From assembly GCA_965644265.1 (NCBI GenBank), contig OZ286475.1:31496001-31560000 (forward strand): 64,000 nt of DNA, given 5' to 3'. The first letter of the stretch is position 1; every line of letters starts with the position of its first letter. The position numbers and the translations under genes are program-made. Shown one piece after another: positions 1,643 through 47,330 of the stretch. The DNA is from Glycera tridactyla (taxonomy: Eukaryota). Under the pieces are notes generated by a model, which saw nothing but the letters and a program-made list of their open reading frames with translations, did not search any database and was not told where the DNA came from.

Positions 1643-1658
1643 AGTTTTTGTGCGCGTG

Positions 1659-4501
1659 TGTGGTGATAGAGGTGTCTATCACCTTTGTTCTTATAAGCAT
1701 AGGTAGAGTTTTATCTAAATTATGATAAAGCAATGAATCAACAATAGTTGCTTGCTTCAAAAATGTGGTGATAAAAGGGTCCATCACCTAGTTTGATATC
1801 ATTTCTTTCGAGACAGGTTTGATGAAATTTCTCTTAAGACAGGAATGGCTATACATGTGGTTGGAAGTAGGGACAGTATCCAGGCACCCCTAGAGGTAGT
1901 TCACAAATTCTCCAACAGATGTCAATTTAGGTCTTGGTAGAAGCTACTCTGTGTCGAGAGAGGGTGAGAGTGTGAGGGGATGAATGCATATGTATGAGTG
2001 TGAAGGGATAAATGAATATGTATAAGAGGGTGAATTGAGCCAACAAATGAACGTGCATGAAAGTGACCTGTGTAGGAGATGATTGGCTGGTGTATGAGTA
2101 GAGGAACAATGATGGCATGAAAGGCGTGTACATGTGGGAGAGAGTGAATTTTGTCTGAAGGAAGAGAGAGAAAGTTTGAGATTCGACTGGAACATCAACA
2201 GGACAGGACTGCCTGGAAATCTCCCGTGAATTCGGCGCCTGAAGGGGCTCAGAGGTCGAATTCATGTAAAAGGGCAGGATGAGTAGAAAGGATCATCGCA
2301 TTGGGATCATGAAGTGACCACATTCAACATATATATAGATATATCATAAGGATTGGACTATTATCTTGTCTATTTGGATGAAGGTGAGATTATCATGATG
2401 GGATTATTGAGATGTGCATTTTAGCTACAGGTCTGACTAGAGTATAATGATGAAGTGAATTGTATTTTGGACCACAGGTCTGACTAGAGTTTTAATGATG
2501 AGGTGAAGTGTATTTTGGACCACAGGTTTGACTAGAGTTTTAATGATGAGGTGAAGTGTATTTTGGACCACAGATTTGACTGGAATCTTAGTGATGAGTT
2601 GGTGAACATGTATTAGGCATAATGGCTGAAGAATATGATGAATATGCATTGTTGGAAGAATTCTATCACAATGTTTCATCCCTTAGATGGAAGAATATGA
2701 GTTCAGTAGCTTTTGATTCTGACATTTATGCAGCCTGTGATGTCTGTGACAGGTGTATGATACCAAATTCCACAGAGATCAATCGGGAGGATGACTGTGA
2801 ATGTCCCCTCTGTAAGCTGATTGAGCTGTATTGTTGTGAAGTGCTTAAAGAATCCCTGAAAAAGTAGGGTCTCCTCCTTTGTTGTTGGGTGTGCCTTCAA
2901 TTCTGATTATTCCCTTTGTCATATTTGGCTGTGAGCTTTTGAAGGGTTCTTCCTGAATCTGTAATGCTGATATGTTGACTTTGAGTAGTCAGGAAGGTTC
3001 AATTTCCTGGTTTATTGTTCATTCATGAGCTATTCCATATTATGATCACATCTTGGTCATTTCTTCAATATTGAGGTCTCTGAAAATATGACAATGCCTA
3101 AATGAAGGGTATGAAATTGTTGAATTGAAGGACAGCACAATTATCTCGGAGAGAGTTTGATATTCCAGATCCCAATGACATGATCCTAATTCAAGTGTGG
3201 CTATAGTATTGAAAGAGTTAATATTTCATCAGTTTCTTGCAATCTTCAAGTGTCAAACTCAGCTGATTATAAGCAGAACATGACTTTCTTCACTCGATCA
3301 ACCTGGCTTTGCTTTGTGCTACAATATATATATATATATATAATTACTACTAACTTGGTGTTGTTTACTCCTCCTGTGTCTATGGGCACTCTTTACTTGC
3401 ATTCACTCATATTTTCTATAACATAAGAGCGGCGCCGGTGTGAGAGAATGACTCCTTTTCACTGAACATATCACATAAACACATGCCTGCACAGGGTTTA
3501 CATGATTGACCATTTGTGTTGCGCGAGTTTGAGAGCTGATGCTGATCCCAGCTGATATTTGATGCAGCAGGTAATTCTTGACTGATTGTCTAAAGAGGCC
3601 TTGTAGTTGGTCACGAGTTTCATCCAAATTGGATATGGTCCCAGTTGATATTTAAGATATATCAGACTGTGTAATCTCATCCAAGAGAAGAGGATATGGT
3701 CCCAGTTGATATTTAAGATATATCAGACTGCGTAATCTCATCCAAGAGAAGAGGATATTGACCCGGTCGATATTTAATATATATACAACCGTGTATTTTC
3801 ATAAAAGAAACAATTATTCCCCAAAGATCTAAATCCCATGAGACATTTAGTTATAGTTGAACCTGTCCACAATCTCATGTGAAGTTGAATATTAGGTTGA
3901 TATCCCATGAGACATTTAGTTATAGTTGAACCTGTCCACAGTCTCATGTGAAGTTTATTATTGGGTTGGTATCCCATGAGATCTTTAGACGCAGTCAAAC
4001 CTGCCTATAATCTCATATAAAAATAGATATTGAGCTGCTATCCCACGAGTCTTAGAATAGGAAAGTCAAGTCATATTTTGGTGTTTAATGTTGGATTAGT
4101 ATTGAGATTAGGTTATTGAGAGATCCCTAGAACCTGTCATTCAGGTCAGCATAGTCAATTTAAGTCGCAAGCCCTCTCACATTAACCCTTGGGTCCCCAC
4201 TTGGAGTTTAATCCCCATGAGTAGTCTGCAAAAGGTTTGGATCTGGACAACTCATGCTATCCCCCATTTCATCTGGTTGTCCATGATCAACTATAGTCAA
4301 ACCTGTATATCTGTCCACCTAGGTGGATGCATAGAAATACTGTATTAAATGTGGAGAACATTCATGGTACTTGTATAGTACAACCTGTTGCAAGTCAGAG
4401 TATAGTGAAACCAGTCACTTAAGGTGACTCATACTTCAATATAGAGCAGACCTTACGGCTAGTGACCCCGTAGGACCCCGAGGAACCCCCTTATTGCGTC
4501 A
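1659..4501 (+). repeat. 5' LTR (2843 bp)
   Basis: TGTGGTGATA...TTGCGTCA. Matches the 3' copy except for four substitutions found by eye (1743, 2298, 2365, 4328). Contains internal 48-, 61- and 69-bp tandem repeats. Confidence 0.97.
2622..2867 (+). CDS. LTR-encoded 81-aa acidic, Cys-rich putative accessory protein (CxxCxxC / CxCxxC / CC; LxCxE motif)
   Basis: Sense-strand ATG in good context (ATAATGG), protein-like composition, 8 Cys in clusters, and the motif ELYCCEVL. An identical copy lies in the 3' LTR. Confidence 0.45.
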   Translation: MAEEYDEYALLEEFYHNVSSLRWKNMSSVAFDSDIYAACDVCDRCMIPNSTEINREDDCECPLCKLIELYCCEVLKESLKK

Positions 4502-4520
4502 TGGTAGAGAATCCGGGTAT
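4502..4520 (+). promoter_or_regulatory. Primer binding site, probably tRNA-Ala
   Basis: TGGTAGAGAATCCGGGTAT directly follows the LTR CA. It is complementary (about one mismatch) to the 3' end of metazoan tRNA-Ala(AGC)-type sequences (...AUACCCGGAUUCUCCACCA), recalled from memory. Confidence 0.7.
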
Positions 4521-4589: not shown

Positions 4590-6485
4590 ATGCTGCCTGG
4601 AAGACAGGGGAGAAAGAAACAGTTGGAGGATATTTTGAGAGGAGTAGTAGGTACACCAGACACACCAGTCAGAGAGTTTAATTTGGCAGAGGCTAGGAGA
4701 CAGTTTAAAACATTGCTTAAAGAATTTAAGACAAAAGAGAAGGAGAAAGTATCTCTAGCAGAAGACAAGCTGGCGACCTTCAAGGAACCATTATATGATA
4801 GTCATGAAATAGACAGTGATTCATTGTTAGGTGCCACTGGGGGAGACCCCAAACAACCATGTACATCTGATCATGAGGATTTGCTTTCTGGTGGAGAGGA
4901 AGTAGAAGTACCTGAGACAGGTTTACCCACAGGAGAACCAGGGAACCATTCAGATAATCTTTTTAGGAAAGCAAGCATTCAAGCAAATGAACAGATCCAG
5001 TTGTTAGAAAGTGAAATCAGAAAATTAGAGCAAGAAAAGGTAGCATTGAAAGTTAGAAGTGAATATGCATTGAGATATAAGGACAAACAGCAGCACATAG
5101 AGCTCATTGAAATTGAGGGACGTGTGGCAAATAAGATAGATGAATTAGAATACGAGTTTGAGAAGTTGGCTAGAAGACGAGTACAGAGTTTGGCTCAAGC
5201 AAAACAAGAGATTAGGCAGTGTCAGGCCCACTTGCAAGCTTCAGATGATGTAATAGAGGTGGCACAGAGGTTAGATACAGTGTTAAAGGTGTTAGACGAG
5301 GAGGTGGGTGTAGATAATAGGGCTGCAGTACCTGCTTATTTGCTTGAGGATCCAGGATTACAACGAATTGAAGAAAAAGATAGTGAAACTAGTAGTGACC
5401 TTGAGAATAGAGAGGATAGTGTTCTTGGTGAGGATATTGACAATATGGCATATAAAAGGTCACTCAAACCCCCAACCTTCTTTGGTGTTGACTCTGAAGA
5501 TGGGGTGGTATTTCTACAGAGCTTTGAGGATTACATTAGCCTTGAAGGTCCAAGAGAGGATCAAGCAAAAGCCACTTTGTTCAGAATGCTGCAGCAAGGT
5601 TTGGCAGGTTACTGGATTAGATCAATAGATCCAAATAAGGATAAGACATATGATGAGCTGAGGGCTGAGTTTACAGATAGATATATCACCCCATACATTA
5701 CAGGTACCAGGTTAGTGGAAGAGACAAAGATGAGAAACAGGAAATTGAACACTGGGGAGACAGTACAGGACCTTTATACTGATATAGTACTCCAGGGTTC
5801 CAAGATGGGTAAGAGTGACAGGGATATGTTGATGATATTCATAGGTGCCCTCCCTAAAGAATATCAAACTATGGTCATGACATCTGAACCTGATAGTTTG
5901 GTGAAAGCACTGAGAGTAGCACAGTCAGCAGAGTCTTTGTATGGTGAGCATTTCCGAAAAACAGGCAGGACCACCCTGGCTGTCATGACAGAAAAAGAGG
6001 AAAGTAGCTCAGAGCCGATATTGGCATCCTTAAAAGAGATAACCACACGTTTGAACAGAATGGAGCAGAAAAGTAAGTCAGCTCATGTGAAGACCCCAGA
6101 CCTTCAAAAAGCAGTTCAGCCTAGTGAGACCTATGGGAAAGCCCAGTATGATGTCAGACACATAAAGTGTTATAACTGCAACAGATATGGCCATTATGCC
6201 AGTGAGTGTGGAAATCTGAATCCGGACAGACAAATAGTTTGTTGGTATTGTGGAAAGACTGGCCATGTACAACGGGAGTGCTATAGCAGGCAGAGAGATC
6301 AGAGCAGAAGGGGCAGAGGAGATTATAGAGGCCGTGGAGGTTATAGAGGTCGTGGAGGCTATCAAAATTTCAACAGGAGCAACGATTATGGACAACATAG
6401 AGAATACTCAGGCAATAGGCTAGCGATAGAGGCTCCACCGCCATCAAATTATCAATCAAACTATCCATCAAATTCATCAAACTAG
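4590..6485 (+). CDS. gag: Gag polyprotein (631 aa): N-terminal coiled coil, capsid-like domain, two CCHC zinc knuckles, RGG tail
   Basis: LKPPTFFG...FLQSFEDY retrotransposon capsid signature; CYNCNRYGHYASEC and CWYCGKTGHVQREC knuckles; RGRGDYRGRGGYRGRGG. Confidence 0.95.
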   Translation: MLPGRQGRKKQLEDILRGVVGTPDTPVREFNLAEARRQFKTLLKEFKTKEKEKVSLAEDKLATFKEPLYDSHEIDSDSLLGATGGDPKQPCTSDHEDLLSGGEEVEVPETGLPTGEPGNHSDNLFRKASIQANEQIQLLESEIRKLEQEKVALKVRSEYALRYKDKQQHIELIEIEGRVANKIDELEYEFEKLARRRVQSLAQAKQEIRQCQAHLQASDDVIEVAQRLDTVLKVLDEEVGVDNRAAVPAYLLEDPGLQRIEEKDSETSSDLENREDSVLGEDIDNMAYKRSLKPPTFFGVDSEDGVVFLQSFEDYISLEGPREDQAKATLFRMLQQGLAGYWIRSIDPNKDKTYDELRAEFTDRYITPYITGTRLVEETKMRNRKLNTGETVQDLYTDIVLQGSKMGKSDRDMLMIFIGALPKEYQTMVMTSEPDSLVKALRVAQSAESLYGEHFRKTGRTTLAVMTEKEESSSEPILASLKEITTRLNRMEQKSKSAHVKTPDLQKAVQPSETYGKAQYDVRHIKCYNCNRYGHYASECGNLNPDRQIVCWYCGKTGHVQRECYSRQRDQSRRGRGDYRGRGGYRGRGGYQNFNRSNDYGQHREYSGNRLAIEAPPPSNYQSNYPSNSSN

Positions 6486-6667: not shown

Positions 6668-9600
6668 ATGCTGTCCTGTGTTGAACCCCCGAAAAACAAT
6701 TCTGTCTCTGTTGTGCAATGTGCCGAATCGCGAGTTTTTGAGAATGACGTCACACCTGCGGTCACCGGAGAGGTAACAAATTCGTTAGATGAACCCGACA
6801 CACCTGTCCCAGAATATATGGAGAATGAATGTGAGAATGGACAAATAACTGATACAGTTATACCGAAACAAGACTGCGATTATGATATTGTACCAGTATT
6901 CAGAAAGAAAACATTGAATATTCATTTGGGGAGCCTTGATGATCCAGAATATGAAGAACCATTACATATTGAAGCCACTGTAGGGAGGTCTACTATTTGC
7001 AGAGCCATGTTGGATTCAGGGGCTGCTGCTAATTACATGTCTTATAAAGTTTATGAGGCAGTTAGATATTGTGATGAGCTAGTGCAGGAAAATTTTGAGT
7101 CACCCACCTACGGACAGCTTGGTAATGGTACATCTTTTGAAATACTAGGGTATGTTTTATGTGAGATACAGGTCAGAAACCAACAATACTTAGTGGAGTT
7201 TGGGGTGGTAAATGAGCTGACTTCTGAAGTGATATTTGGTATGCCATTCATGAATGAGACTGTTCATAGCATAAATTTTGCTCGTGGTGAGGTGCAGATT
7301 GAACCTTCCAGGGTAGTTAGGGCTGCAAGAAAACTGAAAATGCATTCAGACACACGTCAACCTGTAGAGGGATACATAGGGAGTGACATTCCTGATGACA
7401 CGACAGGAATTTTCACTCCTTCATCTAGTCTGACAGACCATTGGATGGCAATGCCCAATGCTTTGGTGAAGGTACTTCAAGGGGTGATAGTTTGTGAGAT
7501 CATGTATCTTGGTCCCATGGATAATGTCTTACCTGAGGGTGAGATCTTGGGAACATTCCAGCCATTGATGGATGAACATGAGGTTATATATTTGAGGGCC
7601 CCTGCTGAACAGCAAGCCACACCATCTGGTGAGGTATTCCATCCTTCTGTGCTGAATGCCATGAAGGGGGTAAGCAGTTCAAAAGAGATGGGAGATAGAA
7701 TATCCTTGGAGGATCTGAGTGAGAATGATAGGGAATTCATAGAATCCTTTGACTGGAGCAATAGTATCCTTTCTGAGCATGAAAAACAGAGGATATATGT
7801 ACTGTTGCTCAAATACAAGCCGGCCTTTGTGTGTGAGGAATACCCCAAAGTTGGATGTACTGATTTGGTCAGGTATAGGATTGAGTTGAAAGAGGATGCA
7901 AAACCTTTCACAAGTAGACCATATAGATTAGATCCAGAGAAGACGAAGGCATTGAAGGCCCAGTTAGACAGACTTTTGGAAGATGATATCATTGAAGTGG
8001 CACGCAGTGAATATTCCTCACCTGTACTTTTGATTAGGAAACCTGCTGATAAGGTCAAAGGTTGTAGTGATCTGTATTCACAGTATAGATTCACAGTTGA
8101 TTTTCGCTTCTTGAATAAGCAGATAAAAGGTGATGTCTATCACTTACCTGATATAAGAACCCTGCAGGATTCTCTAGGAGCGATGTCCACCCCGAGAATC
8201 ATCTCCAGCTTTGATGCAGATAGGGCATTTTATCAGATCAAACTAGAGAAGGAAAGTCGCCCAGTCACTGCATTTACTACTCCTTTGGGTGATATGCAGT
8301 TCAAGAGGTTACCTATGGGATTGTCAGTAGCCCCCTCAGTTTGGAGCAGACTTATTGGGCTTGTGTTGGCTGGACTGGATCCCTTGCATATTTCTTGCTA
8401 TGTGGATGATATAATAATTGCAACAGAGACAATCGAAGATCATTTAGTAAAGATGGAACAGGTACTGCAGAGATTGAGTGATGCCAGGATCAAATTGAAA
8501 CCTAGTAAAGCTGAAATTGGTGTGGAAAAACTCAAATACCTGGGTTATGAGGTATCTAAGGATGGGATGACCATATCCTTGGATAGAAGACAAGCGATAG
8601 CAAGATTGAAAAGACCTACAACTAGGAAGATGGTCAAAAGCCAGTTAGGCATGTTCGGCTTTTTCAGGAGATTTGTCTCAAAATTTTCACAGATTGCTAG
8701 ACCCTTATATGAGTTAACAAAGGAGAGTGTCAAATTTGAATGGGATGAGACGGCTGAGGAGGCATGGCAGACTTTGAAGGATAAGCTATTGAACCCACCT
8801 GTACTGGCCTATCCTGTAATAGGCTGGCTCTATCGGTTACACACAGATGCCTGTTATGAAGGTACTAGCTATATGTTGACCCAGGTGATGCCTGAAGAGG
8901 AGTGGCATAATAGAAACCCAAATGCCACTAAAAACCCCACTATTCGTGATAGGGAACATCCTGTGCTTTATGGATCAGGTTCATTACATGGGTATCAGAA
9001 GAACTATACAGTAACTGAGTTAGAGATGTTGGCGGTGATTAGAGGAGTTGAGTGCAATGAATACTATCTGCGTCCACCTGTTGAGTTTGAGATGGTGACT
9101 GATCACAGTGCTTTGACCTATATGTTCAATATGAAAGTCCCACCTCCGAGAATAGCTAGATGGGTTGCATATTTGCAGAACTTTAATTTCAAAGTGGTGC
9201 ATGTGCCTGGAAGAGAGAATGTAGTTCCGGATGTACTGTCCAGAATGACCAATACAGATGAGAGAACTCAGAGTCCAGCATTGGAGGACCCATGTTTCCC
9301 ATATGAACAAGAAGTTGTGGGTAGAAACAATGTTCCAAAGTTGAATACCCTAATTAATATGATGTCCGTAGATCAAGAAGAGAGGGAACCAGTGAGACTT
9401 AAGTCAGAGATGTTCATGCAAATATCACCTGTTGAGATAGCTGAGTTGAATACATTGGAGACACTGACAGTAGATCAGAAAAAGAGGGAACCAGTGAGGT
9501 ATAGGTCAGAGATGTTTATGCAAATATTTCCTGTTGAGACTGCTGAGGGTGAACTGGACAATGGTGATGTTAGCTTGAGTAAGGACATTCTGTTGGCACC

Positions 9601-11593
9601 CCCTGTATATGATGACATAAGTAAAACTGAGTTGGTACAGGAGGTGTATGATAGTGTTCCATGTCCTCATGATTATAACATATCAAAGTGTGCTCAGGAG
9701 TGGTATCAACCAGTAAGTGTGGATAATAATATCAATCCAGAAGCAGTATTTGGTAAGATGGTAACTAGGGCTCAGAATAAACAGTCTGATGAGCAAACTC
9801 AGGTGAATTTCAATTCAGAGAATTTGCCTGATCAGGCAGGTGCTGAACAGATATGTTTGAAACCAGAGGTTCGGACAGGTTCTGTATATGATATAGTTGA
9901 GGATGAAGTCCCAAACATACATCTGCTGAGCTGTGAAGTTGATAATGAAAAGTTGATATCTGAGGGGCAACAGAAAAATATGCAAATACAGCCTATATGG
10001 GCTTATCTCAGTGATGGTTCTTTGCCAACTGATGAGAATTTAGCACGAGCTGTGGTTTTGGAAGCCCAAACCTGTGAAATGTTCAATGGTGTGCTCTATA
10101 AGACAGGGAGTATGAAGACCAAGAGACCAAAACAGTATGTTCCCCCATTGAGATTGTGGCTCCCACATCAAATGCAGGATGAACTATTGAAAAGGTACCA
10201 TGATAGTGCCACATCAGGACATATGTCCACAGCCAAAATGTATGAAAGTATCAAAGACAAGTATTACATGCCAAAATTGTTTCAGGTTTGTGATGAATAC
10301 AGAAAAACTTGTACAGTCTGTCAAAAACTTAAAAGAACAATCCAAGAAAAACAGGTGCAGAGACCACGAGAAGTACCCCAATATCCTTTTGATTCTATCA
10401 GTTTGGATTTCTTTGGCCCAATTATGACTTCTTATTTGGGGAATGAATACATTTTGGTTGTAATTGATGAACTGACCAAATTTGTGATATTACGGCCAGT
10501 GAGCACCCCTGAGGCAGTACAGACAGCTGATGTTTTGGTGAGAGACATAATTGCCACCTTTGGGATACCTAGATATATTTTCACAGATCAAGGGGCAGCT
10601 TTCACTAGTAAGTTATTGACTAGACTTTGTACAGCTTTGGCCATAAAGCAGACCTATGCTCCAGTTGGTCACCATTCGTCCACCGGACTGGTGGAGAGAG
10701 CAGGTCAAACAGTCATGCAGATGTTATTAGCCCTGGTAAAAGATACCAAAAGAGATTGGGAAGACCTCTTACCAGCTGTTCAAATTGCCTTCAATACCAC
10801 TCCAAATCTGACTTCATACCTGACCCCATATAGTTGTGTGTATGGGAGATTGCCCTATCAGTTAGAGGAACAAATGGTGACAGCATTGATGGAAGGAGAT
10901 GATGGCAATGAGGCTAATGTGTATTTGACAAGATTAGGACATCAGATAGGGACCATTTTGGATACACAAAAGGCAAGATTGGATGAACATAGGAGGATAG
11001 TCATGAAGGGAAACAATGAGGATTTTGTTGCACTTCACTATGAGATAGGTAGCCTGGTATATGCAAGAAACATGAGAAAAACAAGAAAAAGTGAGGAAAA
11101 TTGGGTGGGTCCACTGGAAATAGTGGCCAAACCCTCCAATCAGATTGTGAAGTTGGTGTGGCCAGAAACAAAGAAATCTTACCACACTAAATTTGTACAT
11201 GTGGATGACCTAAAACCCCAGTATACAAGAGTATTGAAGGTGACTGAAGCTGATGAGATAGATAAGAGTGACAAGGTTGTTGTAGATAGAGTAGATGAAC
11301 AAGAAGCATTAGAATCTCCCAAAATGTGCCTGCAAGATAGAAACAAGATTAGAGCTCCACAGTTATATGGAGAACCAGTTGCTACACTGGAGAGTGATGA
11401 AACAGATGATCCAGAAAGTAAATATCAGAAAGTCAAGAAAATCCTAGGCAGACGGATAGATGAACATGGCAAAATGATGTATAAAGTGCAGTTTTTGGGG
11501 TATGGACCACAAGAGGCTTTGTGGTTGCCTACCCAGTGTTTGAATGAAATGGCAATTAAGATAGGTGAGAATACTCCTTATTTGTTACAGTAG
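6668..11593 (+). CDS. pol: Pol polyprotein: aspartic protease, dUTPase-like segment, RT, RNase H, integrase, C-terminal chromodomain (frame open from 6419; probably expressed as Gag-Pol)
   Basis: MLDSGA protease (7013); YRFTVDFRFLN / FKRLPMGL / YVDD (8399) RT; LHTDAC...TELEMLAV...VTDHSAL RNase H; H-H-CTVC zinc finger and SLDF...TDQG...GLVER DDE integrase; WVGPLEI GPY/F motif; YQKVKKILGRR...YKVQFLGYGPQEALWLP chromodomain. Confidence 0.97.
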   Translation: MLSCVEPPKNNSVSVVQCAESRVFENDVTPAVTGEVTNSLDEPDTPVPEYMENECENGQITDTVIPKQDCDYDIVPVFRKKTLNIHLGSLDDPEYEEPLHIEATVGRSTICRAMLDSGAAANYMSYKVYEAVRYCDELVQENFESPTYGQLGNGTSFEILGYVLCEIQVRNQQYLVEFGVVNELTSEVIFGMPFMNETVHSINFARGEVQIEPSRVVRAARKLKMHSDTRQPVEGYIGSDIPDDTTGIFTPSSSLTDHWMAMPNALVKVLQGVIVCEIMYLGPMDNVLPEGEILGTFQPLMDEHEVIYLRAPAEQQATPSGEVFHPSVLNAMKGVSSSKEMGDRISLEDLSENDREFIESFDWSNSILSEHEKQRIYVLLLKYKPAFVCEEYPKVGCTDLVRYRIELKEDAKPFTSRPYRLDPEKTKALKAQLDRLLEDDIIEVARSEYSSPVLLIRKPADKVKGCSDLYSQYRFTVDFRFLNKQIKGDVYHLPDIRTLQDSLGAMSTPRIISSFDADRAFYQIKLEKESRPVTAFTTPLGDMQFKRLPMGLSVAPSVWSRLIGLVLAGLDPLHISCYVDDIIIATETIEDHLVKMEQVLQRLSDARIKLKPSKAEIGVEKLKYLGYEVSKDGMTISLDRRQAIARLKRPTTRKMVKSQLGMFGFFRRFVSKFSQIARPLYELTKESVKFEWDETAEEAWQTLKDKLLNPPVLAYPVIGWLYRLHTDACYEGTSYMLTQVMPEEEWHNRNPNATKNPTIRDREHPVLYGSGSLHGYQKNYTVTELEMLAVIRGVECNEYYLRPPVEFEMVTDHSALTYMFNMKVPPPRIARWVAYLQNFNFKVVHVPGRENVVPDVLSRMTNTDERTQSPALEDPCFPYEQEVVGRNNVPKLNTLINMMSVDQEEREPVRLKSEMFMQISPVEIAELNTLETLTVDQKKREPVRYRSEMFMQIFPVETAEGELDNGDVSLSKDILLAPPVYDDISKTELVQEVYDSVPCPHDYNISKCAQEWYQPVSVDNNINPEAVFGKMVTRAQNKQSDEQTQVNFNSENLPDQAGAEQICLKPEVRTGSVYDIVEDEVPNIHLLSCEVDNEKLISEGQQKNMQIQPIWAYLSDGSLPTDENLARAVVLEAQTCEMFNGVLYKTGSMKTKRPKQYVPPLRLWLPHQMQDELLKRYHDSATSGHMSTAKMYESIKDKYYMPKLFQVCDEYRKTCTVCQKLKRTIQEKQVQRPREVPQYPFDSISLDFFGPIMTSYLGNEYILVVIDELTKFVILRPVSTPEAVQTADVLVRDIIATFGIPRYIFTDQGAAFTSKLLTRLCTALAIKQTYAPVGHHSSTGLVERAGQTVMQMLLALVKDTKRDWEDLLPAVQIAFNTTPNLTSYLTPYSCVYGRLPYQLEEQMVTALMEGDDGNEANVYLTRLGHQIGTILDTQKARLDEHRRIVMKGNNEDFVALHYEIGSLVYARNMRKTRKSEENWVGPLEIVAKPSNQIVKLVWPETKKSYHTKFVHVDDLKPQYTRVLKVTEADEIDKSDKVVVDRVDEQEALESPKMCLQDRNKIRAPQLYGEPVATLESDETDDPESKYQKVKKILGRRIDEHGKMMYKVQFLGYGPQEALWLPTQCLNEMAIKIGENTPYLLQ

Positions 11594-12640
11594 CAATCTT
11601 GTGAAGATCATGAGATTAGGCTCTAATTTCCATGATCATGATTTGCACAGTGGTTGTGGTAGGATTGATTTGGTGGTAGTTGTGAATGAGGCTCCAGATG
11701 TGATTGATACAGCAGAGGAAATCTGCTGACCTCAATGATTGGGTTGTGGAAGAATATCCTGGTACTTTGAGATCCTATAGACCTAAGTTAAGAGGTCCCC
11801 CTGAAATGTATTGGGCTGGCTTATATTAACATCGATCAAACAGTACAAGTATTGAGTCAAGTGCTAGCTGTTTAGTATGTGGAGGGAAATGAGGTGATTT
11901 TGAACAGGTTTTACTGGAAATTTAGTGATTCTGTACAGATTTACTAAATGAGGTGATTCTGTGCAGGTTTTACTGGAATGAGGTGATTATGTGCAGGATG
12001 CACTAGAGTGAATGGGGAGTGGCCCCACATGCATATGTGTTCAACTAAGGAAACTCTGAGAAAAGGCCTGATATGGCTACTGTGATTGTTTGCATGAGAT
12101 GAACAGAAATGTAGCCTGTGAAAGGATTATTACTCTACCCTATAGCAAAGTTTGAAAATGGAATTATGTGATGAACATAAAATGCCCTGAAATCCTGGTC
12201 TGAATAAAGTGTGTTGTTAGTGGTGTGTGAGCTCAGTCACGTAGCTCAAGAAAAGGGAGGAATGTTAATCGAGAATAATGTGATGCGAGGCAATGTGATG
12301 TGAGGAACCCCAAAGTGAAGTGACAGTACCATGGCGCCAGTTGGCACTGTATGTCAAGTGCCTGGAAGGATAGCCTTACTGGAGACGTCTAGCAATTACT
12401 CCTAACATGAAACATGCAGGGTCACAAACATTTAAATAACACCCATGTGTCAGGGTTCAGATTTTATAGATCATGCAGAAGTAAAAAACAGACCATGGAT
12501 ACAAGACCCTGGATGGGCAAAGGAACAAGTTAGGGTAGAATCTGCTCCTGCTGGGGTGACCTGGTTAGTTGTAGCAGACGATGAAGCATGGAAAAAATGA
12601 TAGTGCAGGAAGGCAAGACAAGTGAGAGTTCAGTGTAAGA

Positions 12641-12900
12641 AGTGAAGATAGGTGAGAAAATAGATAAGAAATGTGAAACAAGTGAAGATAGGTGAGAAAA
12701 TAGATAAGAAATGTGAAACAAGTGAAGATAGGTGAGAAAATAGATAAGAAATGTGAAACAAGTGAAGATAGGTGAGAAAATAGATAAGACATGTGAGACA
12801 AGTGAAGATAAGTGAGAAAATAGAGAAGGCATGTGAGACAAGTGAAGATAAGTGAGTAAAAAGAGAAGATGAGTAGGACCAGTGAAGATAAGCAAGAATA
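12641..12900. repeat. Purine-rich 40-bp tandem array inside the LTR element
   Basis: AGTGAAGATAGGTGAGAAAATAGATAAGAAATGTGAAACA repeated with period 40 (starts 12641, 12681, 12721, 12761, 12801, then degenerate copies). Confidence 0.9.
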
Positions 12901-13299
12901 GTGGAGATAAGTGAAGATAGTGAAGAGAATATTGAAGATAAGAGAGAATGAAGAAAAGAAGTAAGAACAATGAAGAAAAGTGAGAATGGTCAAAAGTGAG
13001 AAGAGACATATGAGGAAAGTGAGATGAGACATGTGAGACAAGTCAGAAAAGACATGGGAGACTAGTGAGAATTATGAGAAATTATGTTATTTACAACACA
13101 ACAAACAGGTTATAGCAGACATTGCACTGGCAGGTGGTTTCCAATCTCCATGGATTGTTGAATGGTTGAATACTTGTGCATGATATTCCGAAATTGAATT
13201 CCAGGGTTGTCAACTGGAATAGAATTAATCTTGATAGGCTAGTCACTTCATAAGGTCAGAGGGAATGAACAGGAAGGGGTTCACCCAGAAGGGGGTGAA

Positions 13300-13665
13300 A
13301 TGGAATCGAGATGGTGCCCAGACAGAGGTCAAGAGTCAGGTTTAATGGTTGAGCAGGGTGTGTGCTTGCCAGATATGAGGGTGAGTTACCCTTTCTTTAG
13401 GCATCTGGTAGCTGGAGACATCGGATTTTTTTTATGGACTGAGGTGTTCTTGGTGGGATTATTACTGCTACTACTACTACTACTACTACTACTGAGACTA
13501 TCATTATTGCTACTACTACTACTACTACTACACCTATTACTGCTACTGCTGTTGATACTGCTGCTGCTATTACTACTATTGTCACCAGTGGGGATATTAT
13601 TCTTCTTATATTTCTTATATATCCATTTTAATCGGATTAGGTTACATGATGCAGAAACAGGATGA
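13300..13665 (+). CDS. Possible 121-aa poly-leucine membrane protein
   Basis: ATG-initiated ORF with 37 Leu in 41 codons (13459-13581). Most departures from CTA are synonymous Leu codons. Overlaps the start of the next ORF. Confidence 0.35.
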   Translation: MESRWCPDRGQESGLMVEQGVCLPDMRVSYPFFRHLVAGDIGFFLWTEVFLVGLLLLLLLLLLLLRLSLLLLLLLLLHLLLLLLLILLLLLLLLSPVGILFFLYFLYIHFNRIRLHDAETG

Positions 13666-14350
13666 CAAGGTAGGGCCCCGCATTGCCATATATGTGGCTA
13701 ATGATTACAAAATGAAACTCTTAACCACATACTTTAAACAGGTGGAACAGAGGAGGGCAACCCCAACAGATTTGGCCGAATGGTTGCAACCTGTACCAGA
13801 GATGATGGGAGGTAAATGCTGTAGGGATAGACATGACATGTTATACATGGTGACTGTGGAGAGAATTGAGGAAATGTACCAAAAAATAGATAATTTTGTG
13901 AAAGATATAGAAATTGTTCATGGGGAACTGGGAAGTCTGACTCTCCTGATTGATGTAGGAGATAGTGAAGTTGAAGAGTTAACGATGGCAAACAAAGATA
14001 TGGCATTCAAAATAGCCGATGAACTACTCCAGGATTGTTTATGTCTGTACTACGGAATGGCAGACAAGGTTTGTATTGTGGGCGGAGGGCCCAGTAGAAC
14101 TGAGAATGCTCAGGTGGAGTCGAGGAATATGGCCAACTTTAATGCGAGATTAGAATGGTCACTTGGCCAGCTACAGATGGATAAGATAGTGTTCAATCCA
14201 GTGAGGCCATTGTGGGAGAAGCATGAAAGTGAGCCATGGGAATGGACCGACGATGGCCGAACACTTTCGCTCAAAAAGTCTTTTTGGATATACAATCCGG
14301 CCTATGAGTATTTCAAATTGGTCCTGCAAATGTTGCTGAATGGGAACTAA
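13646..14350 (+). CDS. Accessory ORF (234 aa), SGNH/GDSL hydrolase-like fold with degenerate catalytic residues
   Basis: Motif order matches SGNH blocks: RIAIYVAND (block I GDS position), LTLLIDVGDSE (block III GxND), KVCIVGGGPSR, ANFNARL, IVFNPVRPLW, WTDDGRTLS (block V DGxH with H>T). Intact sense ORF between pol and env. Confidence 0.65.
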   Translation: MMQKQDDKVGPRIAIYVANDYKMKLLTTYFKQVEQRRATPTDLAEWLQPVPEMMGGKCCRDRHDMLYMVTVERIEEMYQKIDNFVKDIEIVHGELGSLTLLIDVGDSEVEELTMANKDMAFKIADELLQDCLCLYYGMADKVCIVGGGPSRTENAQVESRNMANFNARLEWSLGQLQMDKIVFNPVRPLWEKHESEPWEWTDDGRTLSLKKSFWIYNPAYEYFKLVLQMLLNGN

Positions 14351-16517: not shown

Positions 16518-19295
16518 ATGGCTTGCCATATTGGACTTTGGCAGTGTCTGCTGTTCTCGGCCTTACTTGTGGCCATCAATGGTCGTGGCAATCGACAGGA
16601 TGATGCAAATCGACAAGAATTCCGGAAATTCTATCCCAATCTTGGAGTTACTGTTGTCAAGCTGGGACAGATGTCTCTGACTGATAATCACTGGATACAC
16701 ACTTATCGGATGCGGCCTTTGTCCTTCAGGAATAATCTGAATCAATATCTGGCGCGATTTGAATGTGATAATCGATCAAATAGTACCTACCGTGTTCGTG
16801 CCAATCTTGGCTACCTGTGTGTTTGGCTTAACAGTTTGAAAGCTTCTGACCGCCATCATGAGGCTACATTACGGCGACGTTTGGACGGTTTAAGACGTGA
16901 TATTAATCATATGGTACCGGCAGTGTCCAATCCGAGTCAATGGGCCCGACAGTATGCGAAAAGAGACAGACGATTCCTTGGTGCGTTGACGAGCATAGCC
17001 TCGATTGCACTCAGTGCATTTGATTCCTATGAGAAGTATGTCATGAAACAACATATATCCGGTTTGATGAGAGACATTCGACAGGTAGCCAAAGTGAACC
17101 ATAGACTTGCGGCTCAGTTTGGTAGTTTTGTTAATATTTCTGAAATTCGGTGGACCACTGTTCACGATGCTTTGGAAAGACATTATGATACTTTAGTAAG
17201 CTTACATGATGAGGTTAATCAATCAAGGACAGATATTGTGGAATTACGAAAGCTCATCCAAGCTGTTGTCATATTCATTAAAGCAGTGCATTTGAATGAT
17301 GCGATTCATTCCAGGCGGTATGCCATTGTTGATAGACAAATATCAATCAGGAGGCATGCCATACAAAGACTTCTTAATGGCTATTTGGACACGAATTTGA
17401 TCCGTCCTGAAACGTTGAAAACTTCGTTGGACAATATCCAACACCACCTTTCCGGTATGGGTTTGGGGGTGGTCTTGGCCTTTAGTCACTTGGACTATTA
17501 TTACAGATCAAGGATTGTACATGTGTCAAGGCATGGTGATGACTTGATGGTACATTTGGTGATTCCCCTTTCATCTTTTGAAGGGATGTTTGACCTGTAT
17601 CATTTCTCCGGTATTCCTTTACCGATTGACCAGTCTGAAAAAACAAATGCATCCACCATGATTTCAAATCTTACGCCATATTTGGCTCTTTCTGACTATC
17701 ATTTTATGGAAATTTCAAGAGGGGAGATGGATCTGTGTACTGAAACTACGAATTTATATCAGTGTGAGATTTCCGTACCTATGAGTGAGGGCATAGAAAG
17801 CTGTGCTTTATCCATTTATCGGGAAGATACGAGACGTATCAGGTCTCTCTGTGAGTTTGAAGTACATCCCTACATGGAGGATGATGATATTATTCAGGAA
17901 ATAATACCAGGTCGATATTTGATCTCTACTTTCCCACAGACTTGGGTGAAGCGATGTTATAATAAGCAACGTACATATACTGACACTGATATTGTGAGCT
18001 GTCGGCTGTGTATAGTGAATGTAGACTGTGGGTGTATCTTGCAAACTTGGAAATTTGTCATTGTCTCTTCAGTAGACAGCTGTTACACATTTCATGATAC
18101 TGAAGTTTTGTCCAACGATCCACATGATTTGAGGGGAGGAATTGCACAAAATTGGGCATATCTTTATTTAGCAGATCCTGGGGATGATTCAAATTTGACC
18201 CTGCAGTCAATTTCAAGTGTTCCTTTTGATGCCCAGTTAGAGAAGTTGAAGATATTTCATGATGAGAATATGTCCAATCTGAAGGTGAAATTTGATATCT
18301 CTGATGTCAGGGATGCTCTGGAGTCTGATATGGTGATTGGTACTCCAGATGTCATAATTCTACAGAACTGGGTGAATGACATAATAATGCCTGTATCATT
18401 GGGTGTTGGTGTGGTAGGACTGATGTGTGTGGCAATACTGTGGTGTGTATTCTGTAAGGCTGGACTTAAGTATAGAGCCCTGCTAGTTAAAGCAGGATTG
18501 GTTTCTAAGATTCCTGAGGTCGTAGCATCCTCAGGAAAGGGTGACATTTCTAATACATTACATAAGGTATATATGATTGGATGCAGTATGCTTGTGATTG
18601 GACTGGCTGCATTTATTGGTTATCTGTTCTACAAGATGTACCAGTATTGTATCCGATATCCCCATAATTCGGGTATTTCAGCCAGACTTGCTGCGATTGT
18701 TTTAAGGCGTAATACCACAGAGATTAATTTGGAAGTGTATACCAAGTCCCGGTATATGAGCATCAATTTGCTTATGTTGCCAATTGAACCAATTAGACTT
18801 CGAGTACTGTATGATCCTCTGCATTTGAATTTGAGTGTAGTACAGAAATTATGCTTTCCGGTAATGATTCTTGAATTTGAGGATCGACCTATAATTGTGA
18901 TTGACGATGAACCAACTGTGTTCACTTTGCCCACGACTGTGAATCTGACCATGTCACAAGGTAGCGCATTACGACAAATGCTGGGTGACGTTGAAGTCGT
19001 GTACAGATTGATGGTTTCTAGTGGGACAAGTGTCCATAAAGAATGTGTGGTCTTCAAGATAAAAGATGCGACTCTTGATCGCAGAAACAGGCAGAGGATC
19101 ATGCATCGTATGTTGAAGAGGGTAGCTGCTACCTATCATGATAGTGACTTCCATACTCCATCTGCATTGCAGCAAGATGATGATGAGGATTCTGATTTGA
19201 CTCATAGTTGTGATGTTCGTGGTGCATGTGGTGTGCGTGGAGAAGATGGTGTGAGAGATCCAAGAATAGGGGCTGTAGCTACAACACAATTGTGA
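16518..19295 (+). CDS. env: Envelope / class I viral fusion glycoprotein (baculovirus-F/errantivirus-like architecture) with second TM and long C-terminal extension
   Basis: Signal peptide from ATG 16518 (MACHIGLWQCLLFSALLVAING); GQMSLTDNHWIHTY N-terminal motif; furin site KRDRR (to 16973) followed by fusion peptide FLGALTSIASIALSAF; heptad repeat; NGYLDTNLIRPETL motif; Cys-rich region; N-glycosylation sequons; TM at 18381-18455 and 18567-18632. Confidence 0.9.
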   Translation: MACHIGLWQCLLFSALLVAINGRGNRQDDANRQEFRKFYPNLGVTVVKLGQMSLTDNHWIHTYRMRPLSFRNNLNQYLARFECDNRSNSTYRVRANLGYLCVWLNSLKASDRHHEATLRRRLDGLRRDINHMVPAVSNPSQWARQYAKRDRRFLGALTSIASIALSAFDSYEKYVMKQHISGLMRDIRQVAKVNHRLAAQFGSFVNISEIRWTTVHDALERHYDTLVSLHDEVNQSRTDIVELRKLIQAVVIFIKAVHLNDAIHSRRYAIVDRQISIRRHAIQRLLNGYLDTNLIRPETLKTSLDNIQHHLSGMGLGVVLAFSHLDYYYRSRIVHVSRHGDDLMVHLVIPLSSFEGMFDLYHFSGIPLPIDQSEKTNASTMISNLTPYLALSDYHFMEISRGEMDLCTETTNLYQCEISVPMSEGIESCALSIYREDTRRIRSLCEFEVHPYMEDDDIIQEIIPGRYLISTFPQTWVKRCYNKQRTYTDTDIVSCRLCIVNVDCGCILQTWKFVIVSSVDSCYTFHDTEVLSNDPHDLRGGIAQNWAYLYLADPGDDSNLTLQSISSVPFDAQLEKLKIFHDENMSNLKVKFDISDVRDALESDMVIGTPDVIILQNWVNDIIMPVSLGVGVVGLMCVAILWCVFCKAGLKYRALLVKAGLVSKIPEVVASSGKGDISNTLHKVYMIGCSMLVIGLAAFIGYLFYKMYQYCIRYPHNSGISARLAAIVLRRNTTEINLEVYTKSRYMSINLLMLPIEPIRLRVLYDPLHLNLSVVQKLCFPVMILEFEDRPIIVIDDEPTVFTLPTTVNLTMSQGSALRQMLGDVEVVYRLMVSSGTSVHKECVVFKIKDATLDRRNRQRIMHRMLKRVAATYHDSDFHTPSALQQDDDEDSDLTHSCDVRGACGVRGEDGVRDPRIGAVATTQL

Positions 19296-20473: not shown

Positions 20474-23316
20474 TGTGGTGATAGAGGTGTCTATCACCTT
20501 TGTTCTTATAAGCATAGGTAGAGTTTTATCTAAATTATGATAAAGCAATGAATCAACTATAGTTGCTTGCTTCAAAAATGTGGTGATAAAAGGGTCCATC
20601 ACCTAGTTTGATATCATTTCTTTCGAGACAGGTTTGATGAAATTTCTCTTAAGACAGGAATGGCTATACATGTGGTTGGAAGTAGGGACAGTATCCAGGC
20701 ACCCCTAGAGGTAGTTCACAAATTCTCCAACAGATGTCAATTTAGGTCTTGGTAGAAGCTACTCTGTGTCGAGAGAGGGTGAGAGTGTGAGGGGATGAAT
20801 GCATATGTATGAGTGTGAAGGGATAAATGAATATGTATAAGAGGGTGAATTGAGCCAACAAATGAACGTGCATGAAAGTGACCTGTGTAGGAGATGATTG
20901 GCTGGTGTATGAGTAGAGGAACAATGATGGCATGAAAGGCGTGTACATGTGGGAGAGAGTGAATTTTGTCTGAAGGAAGAGAGAGAAAGTTTGAGATTCG
21001 ACTGGAACATCAACAGGACAGGACTGCCTGGAAATCTCCCGTGAATTCGGCGCCTGAAGGGGCTCAGAGGTCGAATTCATGTAAAAGGGCAGGATGAGTA
21101 GAAAGGATCATCACATTGGGATCATGAAGTGACCACATTCAACATATATATAGATATATCATAAGGATTGGACTATTATTTTGTCTATTTGGATGAAGGT
21201 GAGATTATCATGATGGGATTATTGAGATGTGCATTTTAGCTACAGGTCTGACTAGAGTATAATGATGAAGTGAATTGTATTTTGGACCACAGGTCTGACT
21301 AGAGTTTTAATGATGAGGTGAAGTGTATTTTGGACCACAGGTTTGACTAGAGTTTTAATGATGAGGTGAAGTGTATTTTGGACCACAGATTTGACTGGAA
21401 TCTTAGTGATGAGTTGGTGAACATGTATTAGGCATAATGGCTGAAGAATATGATGAATATGCATTGTTGGAAGAATTCTATCACAATGTTTCATCCCTTA
21501 GATGGAAGAATATGAGTTCAGTAGCTTTTGATTCTGACATTTATGCAGCCTGTGATGTCTGTGACAGGTGTATGATACCAAATTCCACAGAGATCAATCG
21601 GGAGGATGACTGTGAATGTCCCCTCTGTAAGCTGATTGAGCTGTATTGTTGTGAAGTGCTTAAAGAATCCCTGAAAAAGTAGGGTCTCCTCCTTTGTTGT
21701 TGGGTGTGCCTTCAATTCTGATTATTCCCTTTGTCATATTTGGCTGTGAGCTTTTGAAGGGTTCTTCCTGAATCTGTAATGCTGATATGTTGACTTTGAG
21801 TAGTCAGGAAGGTTCAATTTCCTGGTTTATTGTTCATTCATGAGCTATTCCATATTATGATCACATCTTGGTCATTTCTTCAATATTGAGGTCTCTGAAA
21901 ATATGACAATGCCTAAATGAAGGGTATGAAATTGTTGAATTGAAGGACAGCACAATTATCTCGGAGAGAGTTTGATATTCCAGATCCCAATGACATGATC
22001 CTAATTCAAGTGTGGCTATAGTATTGAAAGAGTTAATATTTCATCAGTTTCTTGCAATCTTCAAGTGTCAAACTCAGCTGATTATAAGCAGAACATGACT
22101 TTCTTCACTCGATCAACCTGGCTTTGCTTTGTGCTACAATATATATATATATATATAATTACTACTAACTTGGTGTTGTTTACTCCTCCTGTGTCTATGG
22201 GCACTCTTTACTTGCATTCACTCATATTTTCTATAACATAAGAGCGGCGCCGGTGTGAGAGAATGACTCCTTTTCACTGAACATATCACATAAACACATG
22301 CCTGCACAGGGTTTACATGATTGACCATTTGTGTTGCGCGAGTTTGAGAGCTGATGCTGATCCCAGCTGATATTTGATGCAGCAGGTAATTCTTGACTGA
22401 TTGTCTAAAGAGGCCTTGTAGTTGGTCACGAGTTTCATCCAAATTGGATATGGTCCCAGTTGATATTTAAGATATATCAGACTGTGTAATCTCATCCAAG
22501 AGAAGAGGATATGGTCCCAGTTGATATTTAAGATATATCAGACTGCGTAATCTCATCCAAGAGAAGAGGATATTGACCCGGTCGATATTTAATATATATA
22601 CAACCGTGTATTTTCATAAAAGAAACAATTATTCCCCAAAGATCTAAATCCCATGAGACATTTAGTTATAGTTGAACCTGTCCACAATCTCATGTGAAGT
22701 TGAATATTAGGTTGATATCCCATGAGACATTTAGTTATAGTTGAACCTGTCCACAGTCTCATGTGAAGTTTATTATTGGGTTGGTATCCCATGAGATCTT
22801 TAGACGCAGTCAAACCTGCCTATAATCTCATATAAAAATAGATATTGAGCTGCTATCCCACGAGTCTTAGAATAGGAAAGTCAAGTCATATTTTGGTGTT
22901 TAATGTTGGATTAGTATTGAGATTAGGTTATTGAGAGATCCCTAGAACCTGTCATTCAGGTCAGCATAGTCAATTTAAGTCGCAAGCCCTCTCACATTAA
23001 CCCTTGGGTCCCCACTTGGAGTTTAATCCCCATGAGTAGTCTGCAAAAGGTTTGGATCTGGACAACTCATGCTATCCCCCATTTCATCTGGTTGTCCATG
23101 ATCAACTATAGTCAAACCTGTATATCTGTCCACCTAGGTGGAAGCATAGAAATACTGTATTAAATGTGGAGAACATTCATGGTACTTGTATAGTACAACC
23201 TGTTGCAAGTCAGAGTATAGTGAAACCAGTCACTTAAGGTGACTCATACTTCAATATAGAGCAGACCTTACGGCTAGTGACCCCGTAGGACCCCGAGGAA
23301 CCCCCTTATTGCGTCA
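20474..23316 (+). repeat. 3' LTR (2843 bp)
   Basis: Copy of 1659-4501; ends GCGTCA followed by the TSD GCGTG. Confidence 0.97.
21437..21682 (+). CDS. 3' LTR copy of the 81-aa Cys-rich LxCxE ORF
   Basis: Identical translation to 2622-2867. In this position it could be included in element transcripts. Confidence 0.45.
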   Translation: MAEEYDEYALLEEFYHNVSSLRWKNMSSVAFDSDIYAACDVCDRCMIPNSTEINREDDCECPLCKLIELYCCEVLKESLKK

Positions 23317-24986
23317 GCGTGCTTGTGTTGAAGTAGTCGGAGAAAGGGGGAGGGGGTGAAATGTCAAACCCTAGGCATAGTGAGAGCGTGAAGAGAGAAG
23401 AGAAAAAACACACATTACTGTGTTGACATCAAATTTGTACTCCAAAGGATTGCTGAAAGTAATTTTGCAATACGATTTAATATTGATAAATCCAATGAAA
23501 ATAAATCGAAATGATGTCGAAGAATGTATAGATACCCAGAAGATTCATAACCTTAGTCACATTCATTTGTGATGAAATGAGGGAGAACGGTCAATCCTGT
23601 CTTGAGAGAACTCATGATGACGATGCTCTCATTCCTATCTTACATTGCCTGTTTGACCGAGGAGTTCCTGATATTCTCAACAAGGACATTGTGATTAGTC
23701 TCGTCAGAAATCAAACGTCCATGCTAAAATACATGGCTGCCTTTGAAGTGATGTATCTGGGCCACCCTGCTCATCCCTCCCGCTAACAGTCACTCGTCAT
23801 TTCTTTTTAATTATATTTTTCAACCACTGTATACCACCATGGATTGCGTATAGTACATTTGATCCAAATATTCATAAGTGAGGAATGGTACTTCTTCGAC
23901 AGGGAACTCAGATAGCTGATTTGCCAACAAATTGAGGAGCAGGGTTTCGGAATATAACGACGAAGACAACAACGATGACACTTTCCAGATTCGGGCACAT
24001 ACAACCTTGGGGCCCCCTCATGAAATTGTAGATATCAAAGATAGCAATTTCATTCTCTCCAGTTTAATTTTCTGTCATGAAACTCATGTTCATAAAAATG
24101 GCGCTAAGACCCTTCCAATCGCCAAAGGAATGTGGAAATTCATTAAATTCATCGACACTTGAGGTGTCATGATTGTTCTCATAGAAGCCAGTAGCGCGTA
24201 TCAGCAAACAGGGCTTTATGTACGTAGATAGTCCATTTGATCACCTTCAATGATGGATAGAATTATTTTAGCGGGGCACCCCCTGGGAGCGCTGGCAGTG
24301 TATTGCCGTCAGTGGCTGCCTTATTCATAGGTCGTGCGTTCAACCCCCATAAGAAACCTTGAAATTGGACATGGGCAGTTGACACATCTCATGGATTTGT
24401 TGACTGTGCATCATGTCAGTAACATGAAATTGATATATAAAAATGTGTGTGTGTATGTGTGTGTGCGTGCATGTGTGTGTGCGTGCGCGCGCGCGTGTGT
24501 GTGGAATCAGGATAATTATGGAAGTCAAACCCACGTCGAACGTCTCGGCTGTTAATGATCATGACTGTGATGGCCCCCTCCTTGTTTACACCATGCTAGA
24601 TCTCTCGGTGATTCATTTTATGCGTCAGTAGATCGACCAAGGGTGCATGTATGTAGCACACACCAAGAGTTCTCCTCAGTCAAATATATCTGTCAAATGT
24701 AATTCAACTCCATGCTAGCGAACTTATACTGGTCGTCAAAACTTCCTGCCATTGTCATTATTACTATTGTTCTTGTACTCAATTGTGTAAAAATGAAGTT
24801 ACAGACACGTTCTCCATATATCTTCGCCATGTCGATACCCTGTATGAAGGGCAGATGTGTTGTATCCTAATATACTTCCTACAATAAAATACCGATGAGG
24901 CCTTTATTTATGAGTATTTAAGAGTTTAACATGTATGGACGGGGGGGGGGGGCATGAAGGAGTTTTCTAACGTTGAAGCTACTCAC

Positions 24987-40600: not shown

Positions 40601-40866
40601 ATTTTCCGAGAGTGGTTGATCAATGCAGGTTCTACTGTTTGTTACACTGACAGCCCGATCGATGACGTAAGGGGCTGCCAGATAGCCAGAATGGAGGGAG
40701 CGTCATAATGATATAAATGAAGGTCGAACGTATGTTTATAGCCAGGGGATCGTGTAAAGACAAGCGTGCGGCGACTGAGTAGGTAGCAATGTGAGCTGGA
40801 GGGAGGAGGATGGAGCTATGATAGACAATAACGAGCCGTCTGGGAGCGTCAGATATGATAAAAGTG

Positions 40867-46572: not shown

Positions 46573-47330
46573 ACCCTGCACATCAACAACAACACTCAAT
46601 CTATTTTCCCAACATTTCAGCACAATTTGTTGGACTTCTTGTGAACACCACGCCGAAGAAAGTAATGAAAGTGTGTTCATGGGCGCGTTCATGCTCAGAG
46701 CAGGTGGTTTATAATGATCAAGAATGCGAAGGCGTGTACTGGAAATCGATGCCTAAATATCATGCATAGAATGAGCTTTAGCTTGAATCTGAATGTAATA
46801 AATGGTGAGATGTTCCAAGTATGCATGCCTACAGAAAAAAATTAAGGAACACTTAGATAGTTTTCTCATTGTGCAATTATGTGGTTGTTATACATAGTTA
46901 TACATCTATACTTGGAGAGAGGTATTTCTATTTCTACCTTTGTTCTTCCCTGTCTCGTTATCATTGTTTCTTTGGAACAGTGATTATCCAATGTCCACTA
47001 CATAGTAAAAGTGAAAGATGTGTACTAATTGCATGAATAATTATCATACCTGAGTGGGTTAGGCTAGATATATACATGTAACACGGTCACAAACACGGGT
47101 CATCATTTCATTCATTCATTTCACTTCTTGCTCACAGAGTATCAGAATATCGTATTGCATAAGTAATATGATTACATTGATACTATCATAAAGTTTCGAA
47201 TGTCACCGGTTATGTATGCATTTGGTTACTTATGCAATTCGTATTTGTCGTTATGGAAACGCGCCCGCTTGGAAGCATAATTCCATGGAAAGCCATCAAT
47301 GTCAAATTAGGATGCGTACTATGCTAATAC

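Follow-up and report, generated by a model that had tools for sequence, protein, structure and literature searches.

A predicted cysteine-rich accessory gene with an LxCxE motif in two env-bearing Ty3/Gypsy families

The 81-residue open reading frame (ORF) described here is, with a probability of about 0.93, a real accessory gene. Comparative analysis indicates that it belongs to two env-bearing Ty3/Gypsy families, is conserved in both and is held under purifying selection. Ty3/Gypsy elements are known to carry small accessory genes, such as sORF1 and sORF2, for most of which no host target has been named.

The element and its open reading frames

The window, that is, the whole 64,000-nucleotide stretch of DNA analysed, comes from an animal genome assembly of 2.04 Gb and holds a Ty3/Gypsy element of 21.7 kb that includes gag, pol and an env-like gene. 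Its features, in window positions, are as follows.

1654..1658 and 23317..23321, unstranded: left and right copies of a 5-bp target-site duplication
1659..4501, plus strand: 5′ long terminal repeat (LTR), 2,843 bp, TG...CA
2408..2598, plus strand: tandem repeats of about 48 bp, immediately upstream of the 81-aa ORF
2622..2867, plus strand: predicted 81-aa accessory ORF, 5′ LTR copy
4502..4519, plus strand: primer-binding site (PBS), tRNA-Ala(AGC) type
4590..6485, plus strand: gag, 631 aa, two CCHC knuckles
6668..11593, plus strand: pol, 1,641 aa from the first ATG, PR-RT-RNase H-IN with a chromodomain-like C-terminus (below the Pfam cut-off)
13646..14350, plus strand: 234-aa ORF without a Pfam family, in the pol–env interval
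16518..19295, plus strand: env-like ORF, 925 aa, with a hydrophobic leader, a basic cleavage-like site and hydrophobic anchor-like segments
20474..23316, plus strand: 3′ LTR, 2,843 bp, four mismatches to the 5′ LTR
21437..21682, plus strand: identical copy of the 81-aa ORF in the 3′ LTR

The LTRs, the tRNA-type PBS and the PR-RT-RNase H-IN order of pol are those of Ty3/Gypsy elements. Given that the two LTRs differ at only four positions, none of them within the 81-aa ORF, and that the 5-bp target-site duplication flanks the element, the insertion is recent. The tRNA-Ala(AGC) primer type is common to many LTR families of this genome, and at about 79.6–79.9 Mb of G000:C40 (L096) tRNA genes, tRNA-Ala(AGC) among them, are clustered in tandem, repeating about every 3.4 kb.

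The env-like ORF gave no Pfam match. The 234-aa ORF is open and 90% identical in a second element of the same family (family A below) on C47, with broken partial copies nearby, and is a candidate second accessory gene. Purine-rich 40-bp tandem repeats occupy 12633–12987, inside the 4.9-kb stretch between pol and env. Elsewhere in the window are a 54-bp repeat arrayed in about 98 copies (40745–46600) and, on the minus strand at about 52300–61400, two sets of ORFs resembling tyrosine-recombinase (DIRS-type) retrotransposons, with RT, RNase H and recombinase-like frames labelled by eye.

The 81-residue ORF

A first-pass annotation made from the letters alone had described a sense ORF in both LTRs with an acidic N-terminus, CDVCDRC and CECPLC clusters and ELYCCEVL near the C-terminus, all of which translation confirmed. 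Its caveat that the acidic patch downstream of the motif is absent also held, the net charge after the motif being +2. Three stretches of the ORF are of particular concern.

2652..2666, plus strand: L11-x-E13-[FL]14-Y15, a relaxed look-alike of the E1A CR1/E2F-mimic motif; the strict pattern fails here
2736..2813, plus strand: cysteine cluster CxxCxxC...CxCxxC (C39–C64), predicted to bind metal
2826..2840, plus strand: LxCxE core L69-Y70-C71-C72-E73 with Leu at +2, overlapping L66-x-x-L69-Y70

Among 12 aligned rows, C42, C45 and C61 are present in all, C39 and C59 in 11 and C64 in 10. Just upstream of the ORF lies a mini-ORF of three codons (Met-Ser-x-stop; window positions ~2594–2606, and the leader of L018), which is kept in families A and B and could affect reinitiation. 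In family B and in L011 the same stretch also reads as what we take to be an AP-1-like site.

Copies in families A and B

Searched at the protein level, the genome returned at least 39 matches to the ORF (among 40 candidates), 9 of 39 containing stops. The best 30 of these at least 39 matches were examined as loci and split into two families. Family A comprises window-like LTRs with DNA identity down to about 67–81%. Family B elements run to about 14.7 kb and are arranged LTR-PBS-ORF-gag-pol-env-LTR; their LTRs measure about 950 bp, and those of the C40 copy are 99.7% identical. In family B the ORF sits outside the LTR, in the PBS–gag interval, its ATG 35 nt past the LTR end and its stop about 250 nt ahead of the gag frame, and it is absent from every 3′ LTR stretch of the four elements with both LTRs in the examined DNA. 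Outside the ORF, the window LTR and family B have essentially no DNA similarity. Eight further LTR matches, examined among the 30 from a DNA search, comprised five with internal deletions spanning the ORF and three fragments. The family B ORF occurs three times in tandem behind a single PBS at L048 (G000:C32, ~64.661 Mb); these copies are frameshifted and spaced at about 190 bp.

Family C (RT 55–58% identical to the window element) has a 493-bp LTR and a short leader, in which no homologue of the ORF was detected; none was found either in 17 examined stretches of other gag-related elements (families C–G), or in the examined stretches of 35 loci sharing the PBS. Two short ORFs (38–56 aa) occupy the PBS–gag interval in each of families D and F (L071, reverse strand, 4210 and 4374; L080, reverse strand, 4476 and 4689), and three of these are strongly hydrophobic (19-residue hydropathy 2.7–3.0), reminiscent of sORF2-type membrane peptides. 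A third long, env-like ORF is common to families A–D (25–31% identity) and is a putative env of F or gB type.

Conservation and purifying selection

The codon alignment comprised 12 of the 30 loci, two of them without ATG, picked for stop-free frames, a choice that biases it towards intact copies. Across it, dN/dS (ω) was 0.32, and ω = 1 was rejected with 2ΔlnL of 44.9 on the 12 rows and 37.1 on 67 gap-free codons. In the two remaining sense frames, ω was 1.0 and 2.8, with 47 and 124 stops. An antisense frame with ω of 0.42 was considered as a gene and rejected, for it shares its third positions with the ORF and contains 28 stops. Pairwise dN/dS of the window copy against L010, L015 and L016 was 0.24, 0.32 and 0.48, respectively; some close pairs were without significant selection (e.g., L009–L011, 1.06). 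Indels among stop-free copies measure 3, 6, 12 and 12 nt, all multiples of three, and two decayed copies are frameshifted. Eighteen columns of the 12-row alignment are invariant, and the cysteine spacing is maintained.

Identity between families A and B is 53% for the ORF, compared with 47% for capsid, 49% for protease, 59% for RT, 67% for RNase H, 53% for integrase and 29% for env; the ORF is thus as conserved as integrase. Four-fold sites differ at 30 of 42 positions in RT and 33 of 48 in integrase, which is near saturation. The first-pass annotation had proposed an accessory gene and named a neutral or disrupted ORF in relatives as evidence against it; with the ω and likelihood ratio above, the proposal stands, and the L, C and E of the motif, whose conservation it had asked after, are retained across the families.

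Transcripts over the ORF

None of the listed sequence holders is registered as RNA. Three RNA runs (X1–X3), which are contig data from one study, contain spliced joints in a host pocket-protein gene, and hence represent RNA of the same or a very close species. Contigs of X1 and X2 span LTR positions 1659–3314, including the ORF, at a depth of 17–32, with a 9-nt in-frame insertion near the ORF start, and end at a TA run near 3315–3360 (cut at the repeat). Since these contigs start in a flank foreign to the window element, the RNA comes from another copy; the flank matched none of the 13 + 4 LTR flanks inspected, and the coverage possibly arose through read-through. X1–X3 are without cover over gag, pol and env; neither this nor the end of the contigs at the TA run was counted as evidence. 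The lack of any transcript over the ORF, which the first-pass annotation had listed against its proposal, is thereby contradicted by RNA contigs.

The LxCxE motif and possible docking on Rb-family proteins

The LxCxE motif occurs in 24 of the 30 loci (23 of 29 distinct places). Of the other six loci, two are truncated and four carry an altered motif. Its fourth residue varies (C, R, Q or H), and both ORF copies at C32:83.5 Mb (L011, L023) have Asp in place of the Glu. Tyr at the first wild-card position and Leu or Phe at +2 are present in 12 of 12 rows; an aromatic or bulky wild-card residue and a hydrophobic residue at +2 or +3 raise LxCxE affinity, according to bioRxiv 2022.06.10.495386. Glu or Asp stands directly before the motif, at −1, in 8 of 12 rows, with Ser or Thr in L016 and family B. 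After the motif the net charge is +1 to +3 across rows, and the CK2 pattern is found in none of the 12.

The earlier warning that short motifs arise by chance was well placed, as the bare LxCxE appeared in 10% of 100,000 residue shuffles of this protein, and in 2.8% with Asp, Glu or Asn in front. When columns were shuffled, LxCxE appeared in at least 11 of 12 rows in 279 of 20,000 trials, and together with the aromatic residue and the hydrophobic +2 residue in 1 of 20,000; this significance is overstated because the shuffles destroy helical periodicity, and it also ignores the many other motif types that one could have sought. The motif is not an island of conservation: none of the 12 rows departs from L66, I67 or Y70, and K65 and K76 are almost as constant.

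Section 8 of PMC8502044 defines 'Oncoid' genes by LxCxE, CR1 and paired cysteines, a definition that drew attention to L11-x-E-[FL]-Y. The strict CR1 pattern (DEN)(LIMV)xx(LM)(FY) occurs at the N-terminus of 0 of 12 rows and its core in one (L016); the Asp of LxDLFD is absent, and the core also matches L66–Y70 in all 12 rows. The relaxed E2F-mimic pattern, picked post hoc after inspection and present in 11% of shuffles, occurs in 10 of 12 rows, 49–55 residues upstream of LxCxE. Both motifs, in order and at that spacing, were found in 4 of 30,000 shuffles, and the 49–55-residue linker falls within the 41–75 range of the E1A linkers simulated in bioRxiv 2021.05.14.444182.

The host has two pocket-protein genes, one RB1-like and one p107/p130-like, whose exons keep YxxxK and FYN, presumably residues of the binding cleft. 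Through LxCxE the product may dock on these Rb-family proteins, a reading that we hold tentatively, at somewhat below even odds. It is the most specific of the mechanisms weighed here. On a transcript of the leader or LTR, the ORF would be the first long frame to be translated, giving an early product; its cysteines would bind metal, making it a small zinc-binding regulator. LxCxE would anchor in the cleft of pocket B. Competition for the E2F groove might come from the N-terminal L-x-E-[FL]-Y helix, as in adenovirus E1A. Freed E2F, or lifted Rb-dependent silencing of repeats, could then favour transcription, reverse transcription and integration; Rb–EZH2 silencing of repeats is described in PMC7600434. 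Rb binding, if true, would mean that a transposon interferes with the host cell cycle, or with the silencing of repeats through Rb, in the manner of DNA tumour viruses. The further version, in which an E1A-like Rb antagonist with two motifs (E2F-mimic helix and LxCxE, with a zinc cluster as spacer, in 81 residues) evolved independently in an LTR retrotransposon lineage and the move into the LTR in one family lets solo LTRs dispersed across the genome express a cell-cycle effector, is speculative and on balance unlikely. Docking is weakened by the lineage with Asp for Glu, the basic tail without a CK2 site, the low-confidence helix prediction and the conserved neighbours of the motif; family C, moreover, replicates without a detectable homologue.

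Predicted fold and a possible different partner

Helices are predicted at 7–23 and 62–80. Two AlphaFold2 models, both of low confidence, put a helix through the motif, at 62–80 (pLDDT 49) and 56–76 (pLDDT 54), and the motif segment is amphipathic (p < 0.05) in 8 of 12 rows; the invariant L69 faces the polar side of the predicted helix. LxCxE is known to bind in an extended form. C71 could be a seventh metal ligand, and the conservation of the motif could also be explained by helix packing or metal ligation.

It is possible, at odds barely lower than those of Rb docking, that the gene is real and encodes a regulator built as helix–zinc cluster–helix, sORF1-like or Tat-like (a transactivator or anti-silencing factor), that acts on another partner, LxCxE being a by-product of a Cys-rich amphipathic helix. 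The conservation of the entire KLIxLYC block, the predicted helices and their amphipathicity, the basic tail, the tolerance of Asp for Glu in one lineage and the family B position, which is that of Drosophila sORF1, all point this way, and the acidic-aromatic N-terminus resembles, as we take it, activation domains. On the other hand, neither the invariant L69 nor the near-invariant E73 falls on the hydrophobic face, the hydrophobic +2 residue and the Tyr in the first wild-card position suit an Rb motif, and neither a fold nor a partner match was found for another specific role.

Leader and LTR positions of the gene

In family A, the 30 nt ahead of the ORF resemble the 3′ half of the family B PBS and the leader that follows it.

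2583..2612, plus strand: stretch like the family B PBS 3′ half plus leader, likely a remnant of leader capture

This match beat every other stretch of the locus in three of six copies (L008, L011, L015), where 0–2 of 500 shuffles equalled it, and is weak in L001, L010 and L016, where other stretches were not beaten. The leader of family A itself has only 88 nt. Because the RT tree leaves families A–D unresolved, the direction of the move is read from the PBS-like remnant alone. The simplest reading is that family A likely acquired its LTR copy through capture of a B-like leader, and capture into the LTR would double the gene and leave it in solo LTRs. The first-pass view of an LTR-encoded accessory gene stood in so far as the ORF occupies both LTRs of the window element; it is not essentially an LTR gene in the manner of MMTV sag or HIV nef, since the sister family B has it as a leader ORF in the PBS–gag interval. 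Even without Rb binding, this unusual relocation between leader and LTR shows how LTR-encoded accessory genes can originate and then survive in solo LTRs.

Its leader position also raises the alternative that the ORF acts mainly in cis, as an upstream ORF tuning gag translation, RNA fate or early polyadenylation, with the peptide sequence only partly relevant. The placement of the family B frame between LTR end and gag, the three-codon mini-ORF ahead of the ORF in several copies and an ω that is only moderately low agree with this, but the retained cysteine spacing, the 18 invariant columns and the integrase-level identity speak for the peptide, and selection persisted once the ORF lay in the LTR, some 1.7 kb away from gag, as the pairwise ratios of the window copy indicate; we regard a mainly cis-acting ORF as improbable. 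That the ORF is a functionless chance frame in LTR DNA is hardly credible: the frequency of bare LxCxE in shuffles, the stops among genomic matches, the five of eight further LTR copies that lost the ORF by internal deletion and the choice of open frames for dN/dS lend it something, but the ω, likelihood ratio and frame controls, the restriction of A/B DNA similarity around the locus to the ORF and the in-frame indels of stop-free copies largely refute it.

Comparison with known systems

A word-index search with the single protein gave no candidate outside this genome, and with alignment A3 none of 610 candidates held. HMMER over 1.84 billion representatives returned one match, a tandem-repeat artefact without cysteines, which was rejected. 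Among metagenome contigs 0 of 165 held, and among viral contigs 0 of 114; Pfam matches fell below the cut-off, the best PDB match had E of 0.12 and the best ESM Atlas matches 0.85 and 0.88, and Foldseek against viral structures, with a low-confidence model as query, gave no match at E ≤ 0.001. The accessory gene we favour encodes a new protein family, restricted so far to this genome, that joins the small accessory ORFs already known from Gypsy elements. In the mostly open-access literature covered, with papers on retrotransposons judged by title or the opening of the abstract, we found neither an element-encoded LxCxE/Rb case for Metaviridae or retrotransposons nor a report of an ORF within the LTR for gypsy.

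MMTV sag and HIV nef are accessory ORFs in or over the LTR, located in U3 at the 3′ end of the RNA; in family B, by comparison, the ORF is a gene of the 5′ leader. HTLV-1 Tax is a much larger Retroviridae protein, encoded outside the LTR and made from spliced RNA. This retroviral regulator combines a zinc finger with an LXCXE-like motif for which Rb binding has been reported (PMC3393700); homology to the ORF product was not detected.

With adenovirus E1A (CR1/CR2), HPV E7, SV40 large T and the adintovirus Oncoid (PMC8502044), the ORF product shares LxCxE, the hydrophobic +2 residue, paired cysteines and possibly an E2F-mimic at E1A-like spacing. Those proteins come from DNA viruses and have acidic or CK2 sites after the motif and a disordered context, whereas here the tail is basic, a helix is predicted and the strict CR1 failed; no homology to E1A, E7, large T or Oncoid was detected.

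The element itself resembles the chromodomain 'ancient errantiviruses' (eLife RP108449, PMC13524379) in its gag-pol-env order, tRNA PBS and chromodomain-like pol end. The main text of that survey makes no mention of accessory, small, extra or unknown-function ORFs or of LxCxE, and its filters (LTR spacing of at most 14 kb and a short pol–env gap) would tend to miss a 21.7-kb element (PMC13524379).

Extra ORFs are known in Gypsy elements (PMC5408684). Among them, sORF1 of the Drosophila MDG1 group (412, mdg1, Stalker, blood) is, according to bioRxiv 2025.03.14.642691, a nuclear protein made from a short leader transcript. The family B ORF sits at the same leader position, compared by description, and is likewise under purifying selection. 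sORF1 differs in its length of about 110 aa, its predicted helix-turn-helix and its env-less elements, whereas the 81-aa ORF is Cys-rich, carries LxCxE, belongs to elements with an env-like gene and, in one family, is located in the LTR.
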